The translations under genes and the position numbers were made by a program. From an uncultured bacterium (GTDB lineage Bacteria; Bacteroidota; Bacteroidia; Bacteroidales; Bacteroidaceae), in the NCBI GenBank assembly GCA_905215655.1, contig CAJMQT010000001.1, forward strand, positions 1 through 35,903: a stretch of DNA of 35,903 bases, read 5' to 3'. The notes beneath the pieces are model-generated. The model was not told the DNA's origin. It saw only the letters and a list, made by a program, of their open reading frames with translations, and ran no database searches. Positions 21,141 through 29,568 of the stretch are shown one piece after another. The number at the start of each line of letters is the position of its first letter. Position 1 is the stretch's first letter.

Positions 21141-22160
21141 TTATTTTTTGCACTTGTCCGAGCTTTCCCTGATCTTCAAAATCATCGGAATTATCTCTTT
21201 GTATATCTTCTTTTCGCCGGCGATGTTCTTCAAAAGAAGTTCGCAGGCTCGCTCTCCCATGCGGTGCGACTGGTCCATGATAGCCGACAGTTTGGGCGTT
21301 ACGAAAGCCGAAGAATCGGTCTCGGTAAAGCCTATTATCGCCACGTCGTCAGGTATGCGCAGGTTGAGTGTCTTTATCGCGTCGAAGGCGGCGTAGGTTA
21401 TTATGTCGTTGAATGCCAGTATTGCGTCGGGGCGGTCGTCGCGCTGCAGCAGTTCAAGCGTCTTCTCGCGCATCTGTTCGTAGTCGATGTCGCCGTTGAT
21501 TACTATCGAACGGTCTATTTCTATCTTTCTTTCTCTCAGAGCTTCGAGGTATCCGTGCTTGCGTCTCTTCACCATGTCGAGATGTGCCGGTCCGCCGATG
21601 AACGCTATCCGTCGGCTTCCCGTGTCGATGAGATGTCTTGTCGCTTCGAGCGCCGCCTCGTCGCCGTTTGACACGACGGAAGAGAATGTGTCTGTAAGAC
21701 ATGTCCGGGCGAAGAAGACGAGCGGTATTCCCATGTCGTGAATTTCGGCAAAGTGTGAATAGTCGGTCGTGTCTTGCGCCAGACAGGCTATTATTCCTTC
21801 CACGTAAATGTTGATGAAGTTGTCTATGGCTTTCTCTTCCCGTATGTGGTCTTCGTGGCTGTTTGCTGTTATAACGGCGTATCCCGCTTTCGTGGCGTAG
21901 TCCTCTATGCCGTCAAGAACGGCGGCGTAATAGTGTGTCACGAGGTTCGGCACGACTACACCGATAACTTTCGGCTTGTTGGCTCTCAGGTTTTGGGCGA
22001 AGGGGTTTGGACGATAGTTCAGTTCTTTTGCCAATTTTTGAACGCGCGTTTTCATCTCTTCGCCCACTTCATGGCTGTTTCTCAATGCTCTTGATACGGT
22101 CGCGATACTTACTCCCAACCGTTCCGCCATTTCTTTTAAAGATGTTCTGCGCTGTCCCAT
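21141..22160 (-). CDS. LacI-family transcriptional regulator
   Basis: N-terminal HTH (SLKEMAERLGVSIATVSRAL, YRPN); sugar-binding domain (IPDDVAIIGF). Confidence 0.96.
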   Translation of the reverse strand: MGQRRTSLKEMAERLGVSIATVSRALRNSHEVGEEMKTRVQKLAKELNYRPNPFAQNLRANKPKVIGVVVPNLVTHYYAAVLDGIEDYATKAGYAVITANSHEDHIREEKAIDNFINIYVEGIIACLAQDTTDYSHFAEIHDMGIPLVFFARTCLTDTFSSVVSNGDEAALEATRHLIDTGSRRIAFIGGPAHLDMVKRRKHGYLEALRERKIEIDRSIVINGDIDYEQMREKTLELLQRDDRPDAILAFNDIITYAAFDAIKTLNLRIPDDVAIIGFTETDSSAFVTPKLSAIMDQSHRMGERACELLLKNIAGEKKIYKEIIPMILKIRESSDKCKK

Positions 22161-22542: not shown

Positions 22543-23028
22543 TTACATGGGCAACAGTTCGTCGCCTTCCAGATCGCAAGACGTGAAACCCATCTCTTCG
22601 GCTCGCCGCCGGTCGAAGACGAAGTATGTTGCCGTGCCTTCGGTACACACCTCTCCCTGCTGGTTTTCTATCTTTACGTCTATGTCGACGATGTTTCTCC
22701 GCTGTCCGGTGATGCGTGCCCTTACCGTAATCTGTGAGTCGGTGGTCATCACGGGCTTTTTATATCTTACGTCGAGGCGCGTGGTCACGCCCGATGTCTG
22801 CAACTTACGGAACACCGTCCATGCCGCCGCCTCGTCCATCAACGTGCCGAGTATTCCGCCGTGCATGGTGTTGATCCAGCCTTTGTAGTGTGATTTGGGG
22901 TTCCAGAAACTTACTATCTCGTCGCCGTCTTCATAAAATTCCATGTGTACTCCTAAGGGATTGTCGGGGCTGCAACCGAAACAGTCGTAGCCTTCTTTGT
23001 GCATCCATGGGTTCTTGATCTTTCTCAT
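22543..23028 (-). CDS. PaaI-family (hotdog) thioesterase
   Basis: CFGC..NP.G, HGGILGTLMDE and YKKP motifs. Confidence 0.92.
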   Translation of the reverse strand: MRKIKNPWMHKEGYDCFGCSPDNPLGVHMEFYEDGDEIVSFWNPKSHYKGWINTMHGGILGTLMDEAAAWTVFRKLQTSGVTTRLDVRYKKPVMTTDSQITVRARITGQRRNIVDIDVKIENQQGEVCTEGTATYFVFDRRRAEEMGFTSCDLEGDELLPM

Positions 23029-23049: not shown

Positions 23050-25608
23050 TTAGAAGTTAAGCCGCATCATAATTCTCACTCCATGCTTCTTTGCCGTGGG
23101 CAGACTGAGGTAGTTCAGACGCCGCACATACTGCACTTGGAATATCTTGAAGATGTTGTGAACGCCGGCGATAAGCTCCACGTATGGCTTGTTCTTGTCC
23201 ATCAGGTAAGCTCCTTCGGGGAAGAACATCAGCGTGTTGTCGCCCTCGTTGCGTTGCAACATGGGGTTGTTACGGTCGGTCAGCGTGCCCCAAAGACACT
23301 TGACGCCCAGACATTCACGCCATTTCAGTTTCTTCAAGAGCGGTATCCGGTTGAATATCTTTCCGTTCATATCCCACGACAGGTCGAGACTTGCATAGCG
23401 GTCGTTCAGAAATTCCATGTTGTTTATCAGGTTGAACGTGTTGTCGTGTACGATGTATGACAGGTTGGCGGCAGGCATTATGAGCAGAGGGTAGGGCACT
23501 TTATCCCACTGTATTCCGCCCTTCACTTGCAGGTCCATGTTCCCCCAGCTGTTAAGCCAGAAACGTTTGTATATGCTTGCCTCGGTAAAGTTGTAGTTGT
23601 ATTCGCCTCCCAACACGCCTTTCAAGCCCACAGAGTGTGAGAGCGTGAAGACCGGAGCATCGAGATTGACGGGCACCCGGCGCTGTTTCGTGTTGATATA
23701 TTTCTCGCCCGGGGCAAATCGGAACTCTATTTTTGCCTCCGTGGTGCGTATCTTTCCATGCCCGTATTTGGTGTATTCGGTCGTCGGTCCGCTCAAAGGA
23801 GTGAAGTAAAGCTCGCCGCAAGCCTCGTTAGCCTCTGTTTTCAGATTTACCGAAGTCTTGAAGCCCCATTCCTGTTCGTACTCGAACGAGAGCTGTTGGC
23901 GGTTGTAAAACATCATCTTGTCCACCTTCGCCCACTTGAATGCGGTGAAGACGTTGTCCTTGTCTGTGCTCACAAAATTGTCCGAAGGTGAGCAGACGTC
24001 ATACGTCGAGGTGAATGTCAGCGTGCGTTTCGGAAACTCTCGCGGCAGATATTCTTTTTTGTTGAACGAGTATGTCAGTTCGCCCTTGTAATAATTCTTT
24101 TTGCTGTCCTTGCCTCTTGCATAATAACCTGACAGAAACCAGTGCGGATTAAGGTTGGCGGTGGTCTGTGCGCTTATTCTCGCTCGCACACCGTCGATAA
24201 AGTTCTTGCTGACAAACGTGTTGACAGGTCCAAGGTCAACAAGGCTCGGATGGTTCTTCCCGCCCGTCTCGATGAAGTTTTCTACGAGAGCCTTGACGCC
24301 GAACAGCAGGTACTTGAAGCCTCTTGTCTGGCTCATGCCGTTGATGAATGCGTCCATCGAACTCTCGCTTTTGGTCAGTTCCACGCTGCGGTGCTTGTTC
24401 CAGAACACTTCGTCGCGCATCCTCGAATTAGCCTCGTGGCGCAGGTTCGCCTTACCTTTGAACAGCTTGTCGGGCAGCTCGTCGAAGGCATAATCAGACA
24501 TCCTTGTGGTTCGTATGACTATCGCCTTGGTCAGGAAGTTGGTTATCGCCATCTCGACAAACATGTCGTCGGTGGTAAGAACCCAGTCGCCGCTCGGCAG
24601 ACAAGTGTATTCCTGCACTATGCTAAGGTCTTCGACAAAGTTTACGTCGCTCTTCTTCGGCAACGTAAGTTTGCACCTCTTGACGTGCAAGGTCGAGTCG
24701 TTGAGCACCCAGAGGTCGCCTCTGAAACCGAAATCCTGCTGGTTGTTGGGAAGAAATTGAAGGTGGATGCACTTGTCGCGGTCAACAAACACGGTGTCGA
24801 CGATGTAAAAACGGTAGAACGAGACGGCGTCTTTGCCGATGGGACTGGTGAACCGTGATTGCAGCAGACGTATCTGGTCGTCGTACAGATCGACATCGGT
24901 GAAGATGTCTTTCATCATGTTGTTGAGGATGTCTCCCGTTTCAAGAAGATGGTTCACGCCCGTTGAATTCTGTCCCGTCACAATGGTTTTCTCGCTCCGC
25001 GGGCTGCGTCTGTAAATGTTGCGGGTCACGGTTTCGTCGACAGTCAGCGGCAAAATGAGCTTGCTGTTGTAAGGACACATCTCGATTTGGTTGGCGAGCC
25101 ATTTCTTCTTTCTCATCTTTTCGCTCTCCAACTCGGCGGGGTCGATGTCGTTGACGGCAAGCGTCAACTTCTGATATTTGTTGAACTGGTAATAATCTTT
25201 ATTGGATAAGTCGGTCTGTTTCTTTGCCGCAATGACTCTTTTCATCAGCTCGACGGCAGGATTTTCCTTACGTCTGTACTTCTGCCGCTTGGTCTTTACC
25301 GTCACTTCTTGCAGGCTTTTCGTGTCTGTTTTCAGCGTTATGCGCAGTTCGGAGGGCGTGTTCGGTCCGATAAGAATACGCAGGGTCTTGTATCCTACGG
25401 CGCTTATCGTGAGATATGAGCCGTCCTTCCGTTCTATGGTAAACCTGCCGGAGGCGTTGCCGGCCATTGCGATATTACCTTTCTTATACCTTATGCTGGG
25501 ATATGGGATGCTGTCGCCGCTTCCTTCTTCAACGACGACTCCGCTTATCGTTTGCGCGTCAACGCCAAGCGAAAGTATAAAAAACAGTACTGTCAGGATA
25601 TATTTCAT
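23050..25608 (-). CDS. DUF5686 outer-membrane protein with N-terminal carboxypeptidase-regulatory-like domain
   Basis: Signal peptide, ISAVGY, LQEVTV, RKENPAVELMKRVI; beta-rich C-terminus ending in Phe. Confidence 0.85.
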   Translation of the reverse strand: MKYILTVLFFILSLGVDAQTISGVVVEEGSGDSIPYPSIRYKKGNIAMAGNASGRFTIERKDGSYLTISAVGYKTLRILIGPNTPSELRITLKTDTKSLQEVTVKTKRQKYRRKENPAVELMKRVIAAKKQTDLSNKDYYQFNKYQKLTLAVNDIDPAELESEKMRKKKWLANQIEMCPYNSKLILPLTVDETVTRNIYRRSPRSEKTIVTGQNSTGVNHLLETGDILNNMMKDIFTDVDLYDDQIRLLQSRFTSPIGKDAVSFYRFYIVDTVFVDRDKCIHLQFLPNNQQDFGFRGDLWVLNDSTLHVKRCKLTLPKKSDVNFVEDLSIVQEYTCLPSGDWVLTTDDMFVEMAITNFLTKAIVIRTTRMSDYAFDELPDKLFKGKANLRHEANSRMRDEVFWNKHRSVELTKSESSMDAFINGMSQTRGFKYLLFGVKALVENFIETGGKNHPSLVDLGPVNTFVSKNFIDGVRARISAQTTANLNPHWFLSGYYARGKDSKKNYYKGELTYSFNKKEYLPREFPKRTLTFTSTYDVCSPSDNFVSTDKDNVFTAFKWAKVDKMMFYNRQQLSFEYEQEWGFKTSVNLKTEANEACGELYFTPLSGPTTEYTKYGHGKIRTTEAKIEFRFAPGEKYINTKQRRVPVNLDAPVFTLSHSVGLKGVLGGEYNYNFTEASIYKRFWLNSWGNMDLQVKGGIQWDKVPYPLLIMPAANLSYIVHDNTFNLINNMEFLNDRYASLDLSWDMNGKIFNRIPLLKKLKWRECLGVKCLWGTLTDRNNPMLQRNEGDNTLMFFPEGAYLMDKNKPYVELIAGVHNIFKIFQVQYVRRLNYLSLPTAKKHGVRIMMRLNF

Positions 25609-25762: not shown

Positions 25763-26482
25763 TCACTCTTTCACCTTTTCTAATTGTGTGAGTTCTTGCA
25801 AGTTGGTTATTATTTTGTCAGGAACGGTCTCGTCGAAGGTCTCTTCCGTCCATCCTTCACCTTTCAGCCAGATTGCATGACAGCCGGCTTTCTTTGCCGG
25901 AACGATGTCTTTGTCGAAGCTGTCGCCTACCACCGTCACTTCTTCCGGCTGCATGTCGAGCGCCCGGACGCCGAGAGTGAATATCCGCGGGTCGGGCTTG
26001 CGAATACCGACGACGGCAGATTCTATTACGGAACGGAACAGACCGTCGAGCCGGAACTCTTTGAGCACTATCCCGATGTTGCCGTAGAAGTTGCTGACGA
26101 GCACTTTCGGCACGTCCGAACCAAGCTCTTCGAGCACCCGGCGGCTGCGTTCCGTCTCACGGATTACGCCTTCGTAGAGGCTTTCGAGCATTTTGTCGTG
26201 CAAAGATAAGCATTCTTTTTCAGATACAAACAAATAGTTTGAGTCTTTAAGATATTCCAACTCTATGCGCAGCTTGATGTCCAATGTCTTGCGGAAGGTG
26301 TAGTCTGACTGAATGATAGGGTTTCGTCCGAGTGTTCGTTCGGCGTGGACGTAAGCCTCGCGAAACTGATTTTCGGTCACGTCGACCGCCTGTTCGCGGT
26401 ACGCCTGCCACAAAACTTTGCCCCAGTGGCGGCCCGCCGTGTCGAGAGTGCCGCCGTAATCGAAGATATATCCTTTGGTCAT
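25763..26482 (-). CDS. HAD-family hydrolase (start at MTKG)
   Basis: FDYGGTLD, LVSN, KPDP and VGDS..KD motifs; ATGA overlap with the upstream stop. Confidence 0.92.
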   Translation of the reverse strand: MTKGYIFDYGGTLDTAGRHWGKVLWQAYREQAVDVTENQFREAYVHAERTLGRNPIIQSDYTFRKTLDIKLRIELEYLKDSNYLFVSEKECLSLHDKMLESLYEGVIRETERSRRVLEELGSDVPKVLVSNFYGNIGIVLKEFRLDGLFRSVIESAVVGIRKPDPRIFTLGVRALDMQPEEVTVVGDSFDKDIVPAKKAGCHAIWLKGEGWTEETFDETVPDKIITNLQELTQLEKVKE

Positions 26483-27411
26483 TGTATCTTTTCTGTTATC
26501 GTGAGACATAAGTTCTCGTGCTTACGCCGCATGTAAGCGTACATGATTTGCAGCACGCAGATGTCGATCAGCATGAAGACCCACGGACATCCGAGCAGGC
26601 AGGTTGCGTAAATGCAGATGGCGCGGACGTTGAACGTCAGCATGTTTGTATATTTCATAAGCGGTCGGCTGCCGTCAAGAAACTCGCGTTTCAGTTCTTC
26701 CGGCATGGCTGGAACGTCTCCGAAGCGTTTTCTTATCGCGCCCATCATTGCCTGAAAGGCGGGCGTCCGGCGCTCCTGACTCTTGCAATAGTTGGAGTAA
26801 TTGAGGTAGAAGAGGCACTGAAACCAGTCTTTCCACGACAGGGCGTCGTATATTTTACGCTGGCTTTCGTAAGTGTCAAGCTCGCTGCCGGCTCTTCCTT
26901 TAAGGAAAAGAAGGTGTATCTGGCGGTAGTAATCGGCGAGAGAGCTTTGCGGCGAGTGGCATATTATGCCGGCGACGAAGGCGAGCAACCATATCGTCAG
27001 CCCCCATTTGACGCCGAGCAGAGGTATGTCTTCGTTCATCAGGCGCAGACATACGAAGAAATATATCGAGAAAAACCATACGTCGCCCGCAAAACCGTCG
27101 AGCACTCTGCCGAGAAGTGTCTTCTGACCGGTCAGTCGGGCGAGTTGTCCGTCGGTAGAGTCGAGGAAGTTGGCGAACATCAGTAGGGCAACGCCGAGCA
27201 GGTTATGACACAGGTCTGTATGGAAAAACATCCATCCTGCGGCGGCTCCGACGAATATCGAAACGATGGTTACGGCATTAGGATGTATGCCGAGCCTCTT
27301 GCAAAACAGGGCGAGCACCAGTCCGATGGGGCGCGTGAAATGCACGTCAAGCCATTCTTCCGTATCTTCCGATTTGAACGATGCGTTAAGCATCTCTTTG
27401 AATTTACTCAT
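26479..27411 (-). CDS. CDP-alcohol phosphatidyltransferase
   Basis: PNAVT and DSTDGQLAR..G..LDG..D signature. Confidence 0.94.
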   Translation of the reverse strand: MSKFKEMLNASFKSEDTEEWLDVHFTRPIGLVLALFCKRLGIHPNAVTIVSIFVGAAAGWMFFHTDLCHNLLGVALLMFANFLDSTDGQLARLTGQKTLLGRVLDGFAGDVWFFSIYFFVCLRLMNEDIPLLGVKWGLTIWLLAFVAGIICHSPQSSLADYYRQIHLLFLKGRAGSELDTYESQRKIYDALSWKDWFQCLFYLNYSNYCKSQERRTPAFQAMMGAIRKRFGDVPAMPEELKREFLDGSRPLMKYTNMLTFNVRAICIYATCLLGCPWVFMLIDICVLQIMYAYMRRKHENLCLTITEKIQ

Positions 27412-27488
27412 TGCTTAATGTTTATGTAGGAGTTAAAGGGGGTTGAGGTAGTTTAAGGAGTTAAGACAAATGCTTTGTTTTTTATTAT

Positions 27489-27563
27489 TTTCAACCTTTC
27501 AGTTTTTCAACCTTTCAATTTGTTTTTATAATTTTCAATCTTTCAATTTTTCAACCTTTCAAT
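27489..27563. repeat. TTTCAACC/TTTCAATT octamer repeats overlapping the ATP-grasp gene stop
   Basis: ttttcaacctttcagtttttcaacctttcaat...; encodes the IERLKN tail; similar to the repeat at 40-99. Confidence 0.7.
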
Positions 27564-28343
27564 TTGTTCCGTTATCGCCTCGCCCGCCTCTTCGCGACAT
27601 CTTGAAAAGCTCGGGAAGTCGTTGAAGTCGATTATCGCATACGTCCCGTCGCTGCGGATGATGCAGTCGCCGCCGTAAACGCATGTCCCCGTCAAGCGTG
27701 CCACATGTTCGGCGTCGCGTTGTAATGAGACTTTTGAGAAAGGATAGTGCATCGATGCGCCGTTGATACGTTCGTCGCCGAACTTGGATATGCCGTCGTC
27801 AGCGGGGTAGAATGTGCGGAAGAAGCCTGTGCCGAGCACACCGTAAAACTTTATGAGGTCGCCCTTTACGTGCGCCGTTACCACTATTTCGTCGATACCC
27901 CGCTGCCTCATACGCCGTATCTCGGTATCACACTCCGCCTCGTCTCGGGCAAACACCACGTCGGCTTTGCTCTGTGCGGCGGCGTCTCCGCGTTTTATCC
28001 AGTAGCCGTCGCTGCCTTCCGTCGGCGCCGCCGGTATGCCGTTAAGACGCATCAGTCGGTCAACCGTGCTGCGGGAGCACGCCTTGACGCTCTCCGCTGT
28101 GTTGATTACGACGGCTCCGGACGCCTCTTTTGCTTTCAGCAGGTCGAGCGTGCGTTGCCGCCTGCCCATCGTCAGGAAGATGTCGGCTTGTGTGTCGGGC
28201 GTCAGGTTGTCTTCGCTGACAGACTTTACGGCATAACCTCTGTCGCTAAGACGTGCCGTTACGGCGTCCATTATCGCCCTGTCCTTGTCGACGGAGTTGG
28301 GCGAGAATACTTCGGCTCGATATATCGCGACAACCTGTTTCAT
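27543..28343 (-). CDS. ATP-grasp fold protein, candidate ITPK1-like inositol kinase
   Basis: VIN, WIKR, HVKGDLIKFYGV and GGD..IIDFNDFPSF motifs. Confidence 0.7.
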   Translation of the reverse strand: MKQVVAIYRAEVFSPNSVDKDRAIMDAVTARLSDRGYAVKSVSEDNLTPDTQADIFLTMGRRQRTLDLLKAKEASGAVVINTAESVKACSRSTVDRLMRLNGIPAAPTEGSDGYWIKRGDAAAQSKADVVFARDEAECDTEIRRMRQRGIDEIVVTAHVKGDLIKFYGVLGTGFFRTFYPADDGISKFGDERINGASMHYPFSKVSLQRDAEHVARLTGTCVYGGDCIIRSDGTYAIIDFNDFPSFSRCREEAGEAITEQIERLKN

Positions 28344-29069
28344 CTATTTCTCGTTTAGGAAAAGTTCCGCCTTGCGTATGTCTGACGCGTGGTCGATGTC
28401 CAGCACCTTGCTGAACGGCATTGCTTTCAGGCGCAGACCGTTGCTTACGAGCGCTCTCTGGAAGTTGCGCATACGGCTCTCGCCACGACGGATGCAGTCT
28501 TTCAGTATGTCTGTTGTCTGCGGCGTCAGTCCGTATATGCCGCCAGAGATGTATCGGCAGTTGTCGTTCTCATCGAGAAATGCCGTGATGTTCAGCTCGT
28601 CGTCGGTACCGACATATAGCGGCTTTTCGTCGTCTATGAAGTCGGTCACGCCCATCATGCCGTCGCACTCGCCGTGCTGCACGCTTTCGGTGAACGCCTT
28701 TATATAATAGGTAAACTCGCTCTCGCGGAATATTGTGTCTACGGTGGTAAGGCAGAACGGTGCGTCCGCCAGCCTGTCGCTTATCTCGAAAAAGCTGTGC
28801 ATTGAGCTTGGCGTGGTCTTTACGACGATTGTCAGCGGAATGTTCTGCCCGTTCAGCCCGTGCCGCTGTATGTCTTTGAGATGTCGTGCGACCTCCTTCC
28901 GCATGTCGTTACAGATAACGACGATCTCTTCCGCGCCGTTGTTCATAAACACACGGATAAGTCGGTCGACAAGCTTTTCGCCGTTGATTTCAACCAACGG
29001 CTTCGGTGCTTCGACGCCCTCTTGTGCCAACCGCGAGCCTTCGCCGGCTGCAATAATCGCATATTTCAT
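28344..29069 (-). CDS. NTP transferase (nucleotidyl/cytidylyltransferase)
   Basis: IIAAGEGSRL, PKPL and LDID motifs. Confidence 0.92.
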   Translation of the reverse strand: MKYAIIAAGEGSRLAQEGVEAPKPLVEINGEKLVDRLIRVFMNNGAEEIVVICNDMRKEVARHLKDIQRHGLNGQNIPLTIVVKTTPSSMHSFFEISDRLADAPFCLTTVDTIFRESEFTYYIKAFTESVQHGECDGMMGVTDFIDDEKPLYVGTDDELNITAFLDENDNCRYISGGIYGLTPQTTDILKDCIRRGESRMRNFQRALVSNGLRLKAMPFSKVLDIDHASDIRKAELFLNEK

Positions 29070-29159
29070 TCGCCTTTTACGTTCGTTTAATCTGTTTCAA
29101 CTGTCTATACAGTCAGTCTTTTAGCTTAATCGGCTCTTTTCCTGACGCCCGATAATGCG

Positions 29160-29167
29160 CAAAGTTA
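29160..29167 (-). promoter_or_regulatory. -7 promoter element of the NTP-transferase operon
   Basis: TAACTTTG on minus strand. Confidence 0.6.
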
Positions 29168-29285
29168 GGTATTATTGACGAAAGGCGGAAACTTATCGGG
29201 GCTTTTTTGGTTTTTCTTATGCCCGTGTGTTATTTATTAAGAGATTTTATGTGTATTTGCAAAAGATTGAACCTCTGATTTTAAA

Positions 29286-29478
29286 CCCAAATCTGTCATT
29301 AGACCGCAAGAACGATTATTCTCATGATTAAATCGGCTTTTTCATCGTTTGAGCCTTCCTATCCGCCGTCTTGTCTCCCGTCCCGTCTCGACATAGCCCG
29401 CTATGCCTTCGACGATACGGAAAACAATCCGTCGAATATTAAGACACAAACGATAGAAAATCTAATGACAGATTTGGG
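29286..29478. mobile_element. MITE, 193 bp, with perfect 18-bp TIRs and a TTAAA direct repeat
   Basis: CCCAAATCTGTCATTAGA (29286-29303) / TCTAATGACAGATTTGGG (29461-29478); TTAAA at 29281-29285 and 29479-29483. Confidence 0.85.
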
Positions 29479-29480
29479 TT

Positions 29481-29568
29481 AAAAGGTAAGCTTTTGCGTT
29501 CCAAAAGGTAAGCTTTTACACGCTGAAAGGCGGTCTTTTGGAACGCAAAAGACCGCCTTTTGGAAATC
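29481..29568 (+). repeat. 22-bp-period palindromic array 4
   Basis: Units start at 29481, 29503, 29525, 29547; followed by TAACTCGTTGATTATTAG. Confidence 0.9.

Follow-up and report, generated by a model that had tools for sequence, protein, structure and literature searches.

A probable inositol-ring kinase of the ATP-grasp fold in the alternative inositol-lipid cluster of gut and oral Bacteroidota

The DNA analysed here, a stretch of 35,903 nucleotides from an uncultured member of the Bacteroidaceae (assembly GCA_905215655.1, contig CAJMQT010000001.1) which is referred to as the window, encodes an ATP-grasp protein of 266 amino acids, translated from an ATG start and termed grasp in what follows. 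In gut and oral Bacteroidota, the grasp gene is almost certainly a core and fixed part of the alternative inositol-lipid cluster and of its pathway. Its product, an overlooked fourth enzyme of a known cluster, is probably an inositol-ring kinase of a new ATP-grasp family, which lies outside both the ITPK (PF05770) and RimK (PF08443) families by their models. The gene is considered a core member because of its co-distribution with the NTP transferase of the cluster, its neighbourhood, its fusions and a synteny that extends across the phylum, and an inositol-directed kinase is the activity that best fits this context.

Cluster membership and distribution of the grasp gene

The grasp open reading frame (ORF) abuts, with zero spacer, that of a nucleotidyltransferase (NTP transferase), and a 131-bp spacer separates it from the gene for a cytidine diphosphate (CDP)-alcohol phosphotransferase (CDP-alcohol transferase, CDPOH), which is followed by a HAD phosphatase gene. 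The latter three enzymes are encoded between positions 25763 and 29069, all on the minus strand (Table 1). The ORF with its coordinates, abutting the NTP transferase gene in a CDP-alcohol lipid operon, had been pointed out in an earlier reading made from the sequence alone (the sequence-only reading), and the placement of the gene in that reading in a published alternative inositol-lipid cluster is upheld by the NTP/CDP-OH/HAD content of the locus. Heaver et al. 2022 (PMC9246714) describe in their main text NTP transferase, CDP-alcohol transferase and HAD genes beside the gene for inositol-3-phosphate synthase (MIPS) in Bacteroides and Prevotella, with exceptions such as P. copri in which MIPS has another genomic location, and report that two species with this cluster only, B. 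vulgatus and P. veroralis, make phosphoinositol dihydroceramide (PI-DHC). The window resembles this cluster in its three genes and an accompanying BT_1527-like protein, and in the location of MIPS elsewhere, as in P. copri. It differs in the addition of grasp as a fourth, obligatory enzyme, and in that the HAD protein is here suggested to be a MIPS-tied phosphatase. The term ATP-grasp has no occurrence in the main text of that paper, in whose figures or supplements the gene may appear under the label of hypothetical protein, and within the searchable literature no paper was found on an ATP-grasp gene in this pathway or on a bacterial ITPK-like kinase. In the passages concerned, a 2023 review presents the route as 'predicted in silico', with the NTP transferase and the transferase only (PMC10191378), and in a review of 2021 Lokiarchaeota are the only prokaryotes for which ITPKs are reported (PMC8024741).

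The distribution of the cluster was surveyed in 301 genomes of the GTDB family to which the window belongs, using the same set for four queries. Matches were obtained in 193 genomes for grasp and 211 for MIPS (both at E<=1e-10), in 225 for the alternative-type CDP-alcohol transferase (E<=1e-25) and in 195 for the NTP transferase (E<=1e-35). The NTP transferase is present in all 193 grasp genomes, while only two genomes, 98% and 81% complete, encode it without grasp; since the genomes of a family are related, these counts do not represent independent events and overstate independence, which tells against the interpretation built on them. The discordant classes each span at least four genera. 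The published three-enzyme model omits a gene that is found in 193/195 NTP-transferase genomes and is fused elsewhere to each of the three enzymes, and pathway reconstitution or knockout studies must include grasp.

Among named genomes, 597 stretches encoding a homolog were found, and the best 80, all Prevotellaceae-type loci, were examined for gene context. Within 10 kb of the grasp homolog, HAD is encoded in 78, NTP transferase in 73, CDP-alcohol transferase in 71 and a DUF5686 protein in 68 of these loci, and two gene orders recur, namely NTP-grasp-CDPOH-HAD-(MIPS)-DUF5686 and grasp-HAD-MIPS-DUF5686-NTP-CDPOH. When 401 genomes from the whole phylum were searched with a profile, the family was identified in 28, including the genome of the window and five with weak matches to longer proteins, leaving 22 strong carriers, from which 20 distant loci, belonging to other families and classes, were fetched. 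Here, CDP-alcohol transferase lies within the same distance of grasp in all 20, and HAD and NTP transferase in 19 each. The most constant adjacency is that of HAD and MIPS (30/30 Prevotellaceae-type loci and 16/18 distant loci with both), while CDPOH and HAD are adjacent in 2/19 distant clusters. Fusions were further observed among ten long representatives scanned, three of which combine grasp with an NTP_transferase domain, four with HAD, two with CDP-OH_P_transf and one with a PAS/histidine kinase. The corresponding Atlas fusion clusters have 395 (NTP), 418 (HAD) and 60 members (CDP-OH), with 30% of the last also carrying NTP.

The histidine-kinase fusion (P0139; 691 amino acids) has a PAS-HisKA-HATPase_c arrangement joined to the grasp domain and reflects either regulation of the pathway or a gene-calling artefact. 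A separate PAS histidine-kinase gene heads one of the distant clusters (L134, 3376-4581). The cluster is split in G001, a complete genome from the same genus, with NTP-grasp at ~1.56 Mb and CDP-alcohol transferase and MIPS at ~0.435-0.438 Mb, and the five genes thus need not be linked.

The sequence-only reading recorded MIPS as absent and for this reason proposed grasp as a salvage entry for scavenged inositol, predicting that the two genes would be anticorrelated. The absence holds for the window only, and an intact 434-amino acid MIPS (PF07994, E 4.2e-104; PF01658, E 2.3e-33) is encoded on contig C114 of the same assembly (70% complete, 157 contigs), so that MIPS is present in the genome, as in the cluster of Heaver et al., albeit non-adjacent. 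The survey shows the reverse of the predicted pattern, with MIPS occurring in 174/192 of the CDP-alcohol transferase genomes that have grasp versus 2/33 of those that do not. Sorted by these three queries, 174 genomes have all of them and 41 have none, 18 have grasp and CDP-alcohol transferase, one has grasp and MIPS, two have CDP-alcohol transferase and MIPS, 31 have CDP-alcohol transferase only and 34 have MIPS only. MIPS is furthermore located inside the grasp cluster in 30/80 Prevotellaceae-type and 18/20 distant loci. The grasp enzyme accompanies MIPS rather than replacing it.

A kinase serving salvage only, in place of a missing MIPS, is already contradicted as an exclusive role, and we regard it as very improbable. 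It would account for the 18/192 cluster genomes without MIPS, 11 of which are at least 90% complete, and for T. forsythia, the inositol lipids of which derive solely from outside inositol with no kinase candidate known and for which only a lone transferase homolog was found by the authors of that study (PMC4587543). A further point in its favour is that B. thetaiotaomicron, with its BT-type cluster, puts only a very minor amount of outside inositol into its inositol lipids (PMC9246714). This explanation is at odds with the MIPS genes of the window's own genome and of most carriers, as well as with those inside the clusters, and the lack of grasp in only 2/195 NTP-bearing genomes would be unexpected for a dispensable salvage enzyme. 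True carriers without MIPS nevertheless exist: the MIPS Pfam models had no match in 5/5 of the 18 grasp-positive, MIPS-negative genomes that were checked (93-99% complete), and NTP-grasp-CDPOH-HAD is intact in 5/5 MIPS-less contexts fetched, four of which come from these Pfam-checked genomes. Such organisms thus require a way in for inositol from outside.

The 31 genomes with CDP-alcohol transferase only might be taken for an alternative cluster without grasp, a candidate that was rejected as the six contexts fetched hold a lone CDP-alcohol transferase paralog (48-50% identity). No NTP transferase of the window's type (P0002), HAD or grasp gene was observed in seven contexts, comprising these six and one of the two grasp-negative genomes with CDP-alcohol transferase and MIPS, which contain the lone paralog only. 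In two loci examined, an IspD-type cytidylyltransferase (PF01128, 1e-29 and 5e-31) comes next after the paralog, and an NTP_transf_5 gene is also found there (L083, 7962-9693; L085, 3083-5273). This is a hint of a second lipid head-group system that is based on a CDP-alcohol but uses another alcohol. Members of the transferase family thus seem to be paired with the cytidylyltransferase that supplies their CDP-alcohol, whichever that is, with only the inositol version being accompanied by grasp. The 34 genomes with MIPS only are BT-type, and the BT-type phosphatidylinositol phosphate (PIP) synthase takes inositol-3-phosphate (Ins3P) directly. Being absent from both BT-type genomes and IspD-paired paralog loci, grasp is a gene specific to the inositol cluster.

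Family, fold and predicted active site

No Pfam or NCBIfam family matched the grasp protein at E<=1, and a PDB search with the single sequence returned two insignificant and unrelated matches only. Of 1929 candidates in a word-indexed search, 1024 proteins matched at E<=1e-3, and an exhaustive search identified 910 representatives at E<=1e-3, including 248 at E<=1e-30; relatives that bear a name at all are labelled as hypothetical proteins of Prevotella-type organisms. Conservation was derived from 117 diverse representatives that are 34-54% identical to the query. The motifs quoted in the sequence-only reading, AHVKGDLIKFYGV (residues 157-169) and YGGDCII...YAIIDFNDFPSF (residues 223-246), are present in the translation, and their conservation among these representatives shows that they are not due to chance. 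The invariant positions are K117, K165, G224, D226, D239, N241, D242 and P244, while 90% or more of the sequences retain H158. K117, K165, D226, D239 and N241 are presumably ATP and metal ligands, given what is generally known of the ATP-grasp fold. R9, R61, R91, H158 and K165 are also conserved and may be equivalent to the basic residues of the N-terminal and central domains by which ITPK1 binds inositol phosphates.

The predicted structure is a confident ATP-grasp fold (predicted local distance difference test score, pLDDT, 93.2) with the three domains of that fold, and a structural search with it bears out the earlier assignment as an ATP-grasp protein. The closest neighbour is RimK (Z 20.7; root-mean-square deviation 2.8; 237 residues), followed by LysX/ArgX (Z 19.3-19.6), carbamoyl-phosphate synthetase (Z 18.9), maize ITPK1 and synapsin (both Z 18.5), and human ITPK1 and Ddl (both Z 18.3), with human ITPK1 showing the highest identity of all (16-17%). 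In Foldseek searches of the pdb and pdb_via libraries, Ddl, ITPK1, ArgX, RimK and PPIP5K2 all fall within E 1.6e-11 to 6e-10, which does not discriminate between them. The comparison with ITPK1 and RimK envisaged in the sequence-only reading thus places ITPK1 among the neighbours, but RimK ranks higher by Z.

A PDB search with a profile of the 117 sequences returned seven chains at E<0.01, while an earlier profile of 35 sequences had matched ITPKs only at E 0.13-0.32. The best match is the graspetide ligase PsnB (E 7.3e-5; positions 61-253), and Arabidopsis ITPK4 (E 7e-4), Entamoeba ITPK1 (E 4.8e-3) and four human ITPK1 constructs (E 7.4e-3 to 7.8e-3) follow, with LysX and glutathione synthetase next (E 0.16-0.22). 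Every ITPK match is confined to the C-terminal block G-x-D...D-x-N-x-x-P-S/G-F/Y, in which D226, D239 and N241 align with the equivalent block of the ITPKs and PsnB. The invariant D239-F-N241 is found opposite D-L-N in Arabidopsis ITPK4, D-V-N in Entamoeba ITPK1 and D-I-N in human ITPK1, and the ITPK-like character of this metal site, as first proposed from the sequence, is thereby sustained. The ligases that were compared read E-x-N, namely E-L-N in PsnB and E-I-N in the Ddl of the same genome (...IEINTTPG...), so that the proposed distinction of E-x-N ligases from D-x-N kinases stands for these two proteins; N-x-x-P-G/S also occurs in Ddl and is not ITPK-specific, and only the Asp is ITPK-like. 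K165 occupies the position of the Arg in the D-V-R strand of PsnB. ITPK1 has a Lys at the equivalent position, and RimK and LysX have E-x-N and the Arg of D-x-R. The D-x-N and Lys165 of the grasp family differ from this E-x-N and Arg combination, the comparison being with PsnB for both features and with Ddl for E-x-N. When the family was aligned to its own-genome Ddl with hhalign, only the central domain was matched (probability 32%), with the metal site outside the alignment.

Together, the invariant D-x-N, the ITPK profile matches and the replacement of the PsnB Arg by Lys165 are kinase-like features, although several observations weigh against a kinase. The profile search is led by PsnB, the nearest structures are those of peptide ligases, and the fold tilts slightly towards these by only about two Z units, a difference that leaves the chemistry undecided. 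A Pfam scan of the 117 members at E<=10 gave an even spread of families (PF05770, ATPgrasp_ST and TTL in 11 each; RimK and R2K_3 in nine each), and most of the feature neighbours in the Atlas bear the name RimK, while one Asgard cluster is ITPK-named. No member exceeded the threshold of any Pfam ATP-grasp family; for PF05770, there was no query match at E<=1 and 0/117 members passed the cut-off, with 11 weak matches (best E 0.0041), while for PF08443 there was likewise no query match and the nine weak matches reached E 0.001 at best. The grasp protein is, as far as models and alignments indicate, a separate family of the ATP-grasp clan, similar to the ITPKs in its metal site and to RimK in its overall shape.

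The grasp protein resembles ITPK1/ITPK4 (PF05770; PDB 2odt, 2q7d, 1z2n, 7pup, 7tn5) in its C-terminal block and in the class of substrate suggested by its gene context, but is shorter and bacterial, is encoded in a lipid operon and has an invariant D242 directly after the Asn. Its substrate would be inositol or a monophosphate, as opposed to InsP3 or InsP4. The α-amino-acid ligases RimK, LysX and ArgX (PF08443; PDB 5zk6, 3vpd, 3vpb) are closest to it in structure, but the grasp cluster provides no amino-acid or carrier-protein partner. A ligase, working through an acyl-phosphate to form an amide or ester on an intermediate, a head group or a protein or peptide partner of the pathway, is in our view an unlikely alternative which is nonetheless in keeping with the PsnB match, with the nearest structures and with the RimK-named Atlas neighbours. 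The class-III aminotransferase and GFO/IDH/MocA oxidoreductase genes of 13/15 loci from other classes of Bacteroidota could, moreover, create an amine. However, grasp persists without these two genes in the window and in the 80 Prevotellaceae-type loci (0/80), no carboxylate-supplying gene is conserved in the cluster, the family differs from the ligases read at the metal site and at Lys165, and species with this cluster only produce unmodified PI-DHC (PMC9246714).

A putative Kennedy-type route and its alternatives

An activity as a kinase of inositol or of inositol phosphate, irrespective of the order of steps, is a reasonably probable function for grasp. More tentatively, we suggest that it phosphorylates the ring of free inositol in a Kennedy-type route. 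MIPS would make D-inositol-3-phosphate, from which the HAD phosphatase would free inositol, like IMPase in eukaryotes. The grasp kinase would re-phosphorylate the inositol, plausibly at D-1, and the NTP transferase would turn the resulting inositol phosphate into CDP-inositol. The CDP-alcohol transferase would then move phospho-inositol onto a lipid alcohol, either diacylglycerol or dihydroceramide. The kinase step would also admit outside inositol and in this way account for the MIPS-less carriers. The Kennedy route begins with a kinase and the NTP transferase and CDP-OH enzymes represent its second and third steps, and grasp is for this reason read as the kinase, while HAD is read as a MIPS-linked phosphatase because its gene adjoins MIPS. 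MIPS yields the D-3 phosphate and canonical inositol lipids are linked through D-1, and this difference in position could be a reason for a phosphate to be removed and re-added. From these comparisons we infer kinase rather than ligase activity, the substrate, the regiochemistry and the role of HAD.

The NTP transferase (P0002) has a weak NCBIfam match to IPCT/DIPPS (E 8.5e-10), with a weak value for P0003 as well (E 3.7e-4). No IMPase-family (PF00459) gene was detected in seven of the ten near-complete (93-99%) cluster-bearing genomes checked (G001, G036, G216, G090, G276, G065 and G261), while the same model detected one in 14/14 control genomes. A precedent for the proposed chemistry is the ATP-grasp kinase ITPK1, which adds a phosphate to the inositol monophosphate made by MIPS (PMC6900528). 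In species with this cluster only, the lipid is plain PI-DHC, just as in B. thetaiotaomicron (PMC9246714), which fits a phosphate that becomes the bridge or is removed, and misfits an added acyl or aminoacyl group. In the model of Heaver et al., the inositol phosphate passes straight to the NTP transferase and HAD converts phosphoinositol diacylglycerol (PI-DAG) to PI-DHC, and these authors already likened the last two steps to the Kennedy pathway (PMC9246714). The proposed order of kinase, cytidylyltransferase and CDP-OH_P_transf-family enzyme matches that of the eukaryotic pathway with its choline/ethanolamine kinase; the kinase here would have an ATP-grasp rather than a choline-kinase fold and the alcohol would be inositol, making this a likeness of working and not of homology.

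Other observations are less readily reconciled with such a route, the kinase step of which is deduced from comparison and context. Removing a phosphate only to add another costs ATP, and we know of no proven bacterial precedent for it. Jorge et al. 2015 reportedly described a CDP-inositol pathway in Rhodothermus marinus consisting of MIPS, IPCT and BEPIS. This pathway and the archaeal IPCT/DIPPS share with the present cluster a CDP-inositol head-group donor and the combination of a cytidylyltransferase with a CDP-alcohol transferase, but the Rhodothermus operon is, in the passages concerned, described without a kinase or phosphatase, whereas the Bacteroidales-type cluster always adds grasp and HAD. 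As cited in a passage of PMC4587543, the Rhodothermus route needs only MIPS, IPCT and the transferase, and a kinase is thus not chemically required. Furthermore, HAD is kept in 5/5 MIPS-less contexts, where the preferred order does not require it, and the CDP-OH-HAD fusion in P. veroralis (PMC9246714) fits a late-acting HAD better.

The latter two points are better served by a different order of steps, in which grasp would be an Ins3P kinase that adds a second phosphate to the MIPS product, with the NTP transferase then activating one phosphate to yield CDP-inositol-phosphate and the CDP-alcohol transferase producing a PIP-like lipid, from which HAD removes the extra phosphate last. This order, to which we assign a low probability, mirrors the PIP-synthase/PIP-phosphatase logic of B. 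thetaiotaomicron and mycobacteria and has its cluster, fusion and motif evidence in common with the free-inositol order, further support being the tie between grasp and MIPS and a weak match of HAD to the PGP-phosphatase family PF09419 (E 0.0077). That ITPK1 acts on an inositol monophosphate (PMC6900528) is also in its favour. The 18 MIPS-less carriers would, however, be left without a substrate unless the enzyme also phosphorylates free inositol, and the HAD gene of distant clusters adjoins MIPS far more frequently than CDPOH (16/18 vs 2/19). To our knowledge, a CDP-inositol-phosphate donor has no precedent.

Should the preferred reading of grasp as a kinase be correct, it would represent a new bacterial inositol-kinase family without a Pfam model and would explain why the cluster needs a phosphatase. 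It would also be a candidate for the use of host inositol by MIPS-less oral and gut species, a matter left open by the T. forsythia study (PMC4587543). In Bacteroides and Prevotella, inositol lipids have an effect on the capsule, on resistance to antimicrobial peptides and on fitness in the gut, and Prevotella more commonly has the alternative cluster as its route (PMC9246714).

Related loci in other classes and layout of the operon

The 15 distant loci from other classes of Bacteroidota are larger than those of the Bacteroidales, with Mla-like lipid ABC transporter genes in 14/15 and a gene for an LPG_synthase_TM (MprF-type flippase-like) protein in 15/15. Genes for these proteins, the aminotransferase and the oxidoreductase are absent from the 80 Prevotellaceae-type loci and the window, apart from two chance-level ABC ATPase matches. 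The gene order in these loci (L130-L144; for example L133, 4765-19096) is (Omp85-like)-(PagL-like)-NTP-MlaE-MlaF-MlaD-grasp-aminotransferase III-CDPOH-GFO/IDH/MocA oxidoreductase-LPG_synthase_TM-HAD-MIPS-(Omp85-like), with Omp85-like and PagL-like genes in only three to four of the 20 distant loci. The aminotransferases share 65-94% identity between loci. The composition of these loci suggests the export of an aminocyclitol-headed lipid to the outer membrane.

Tandem grasp paralogs with a mutual identity of 48-52% are found in 4/20 distant loci (L132, L133, L136 and L137; ~9.4-11.3 kb). All copies keep K117, K165, D226, D239, N241 and D242, while Gln replaces the otherwise invariant R61 in 3/8 copies, one in each of three of the four pairs, and position 162 is D, E or K. 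The clade with tandem paralogs lacks the 178-202 loop of the Bacteroidales proteins. The differences at R61 and D162 suggest substrate plasticity, and the aminotransferase and oxidoreductase suggest modified cyclitols, both of which would suit a kinase for some other acceptor, such as another polyol, an aminocyclitol, a lipid alcohol (ceramide or diacylglycerol) or the finished inositol lipid. We consider this decidedly unlikely in view of MIPS being the conserved partner and of the weak IPCT match of the NTP transferase. The NTP_transferase fold acts on soluble phospho-alcohols, and we know of no lipid kinase with the ATP-grasp fold. Finally, the kinase reading may be extended to the rather doubtful proposal that grasp is the first bacterial ITPK-like ATP-grasp inositol-ring kinase, that together with the MIPS-adjacent HAD it moves the phosphate from D-3 to D-1 and completes, in gut and oral Bacteroidota, a Kennedy-type route to inositol glycerolipids and sphingolipids which in MIPS-less species is open to host or dietary inositol, and that in other classes its duplicated copies, with the aminotransferase and an inositol-dehydrogenase-like enzyme, give rise to aminocyclitol-headed lipids with Mla-type export.

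Table 1. Features of the putative inositol-lipid operon and of the grasp gene (window positions)
Feature	Position	Strand	Evidence and remarks
NTP transferase, predicted cytidylyltransferase, operon gene 1	28344..29069	-	PF00483, E 3.7e-12; PF12804, E 4.3e-9
grasp gene, unnamed ATP-grasp family, predicted inositol-ring kinase, operon gene 2	27543..28343	-	
K117 codon, W-x-K-R-G-D strand, predicted ATP-binding Lys	27993..27995	-	Invariant in 117 sequences; hhalign places it on the F-V-K-P strand of own-genome Ddl
Motif H158-V169 (HVKGDLIKFYGV) with invariant K165	27837..27872	-	K165 opposite PsnB Arg (D-V-R vs L-V-K, HMMER alignment)
Motif G224-F246 (GGD...IDFNDFPSF), predicted metal ligands D226, D239 and N241, invariant D242	27606..27674	-	Aligned to the ITPK block
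CDP-alcohol phosphotransferase, membrane protein	26479..27411	-	PF01066, E 1.8e-10
HAD-IA phosphatase	25763..26509	-	PF00702, PF13419; 31-bp overlap with CDP-alcohol transferase gene
CarbopepD_reg + DUF5686 protein, BT_1527-like class of Heaver et al.	23050..25608	-	PF18939, E 5.2e-48; PF13715
4HBT-type thioesterase	22543..23028	-	PF03061, E 1e-11; 21 bp downstream of DUF5686 gene
Perfect hairpin, 15-nt stem, between upstream DUF2807 gene and operon	29526..29560	.	Inverted repeat I4
Two AT-rich tandem repeat units, 44 nt each, 93% alike, TTGAAAGGTTGAAAAA-like words	27479..27566	.	Over last codons and stop of grasp, into the spacer

The CarbopepD_reg/DUF5686 protein is probably envelope-associated and the 4HBT thioesterase may be the last gene of the operon, beyond which a LacI-type regulator is encoded (21141-22160). 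The hairpin upstream of the NTP transferase gene likely marks the other operon boundary. The remaining genes of the window are ordinary housekeeping genes, coding for QueG, PurD, DPP-IV, RlmL, S41 and M3 peptidases and the LacI regulator. The NTP/grasp junction is bridged by contigs of three RNA libraries from three studies (X2, 27536-29282; X18, 28090-28651; X20, 28184-28436), giving a weak hint of co-transcription, as contigs of RNA libraries cannot prove a single transcript and may contain DNA, with X2 covering all 30 bins in the manner of a DNA run.

At the tandem repeats that overlap the end of the grasp gene, the contigs of X1 and X2, one a DNA and the other an RNA run, end and the summed depth rises ~3- to 5-fold, which suggests that the TTGAAAGGTTGAAAAA-like repeat word is common in the metagenomes used. 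Upstream of the NTP transferase gene, a pair of 24-nt inverted repeats, 96% complementary and 157 nt apart, is located at 29280-29503. The X1 and X2 contigs skip a 220-bp stretch from 29282 to 29503 that coincides with this pair, and the region looks like a small insertion polymorphism resembling a miniature inverted-repeat transposable element (MITE) in the promoter region of the operon.

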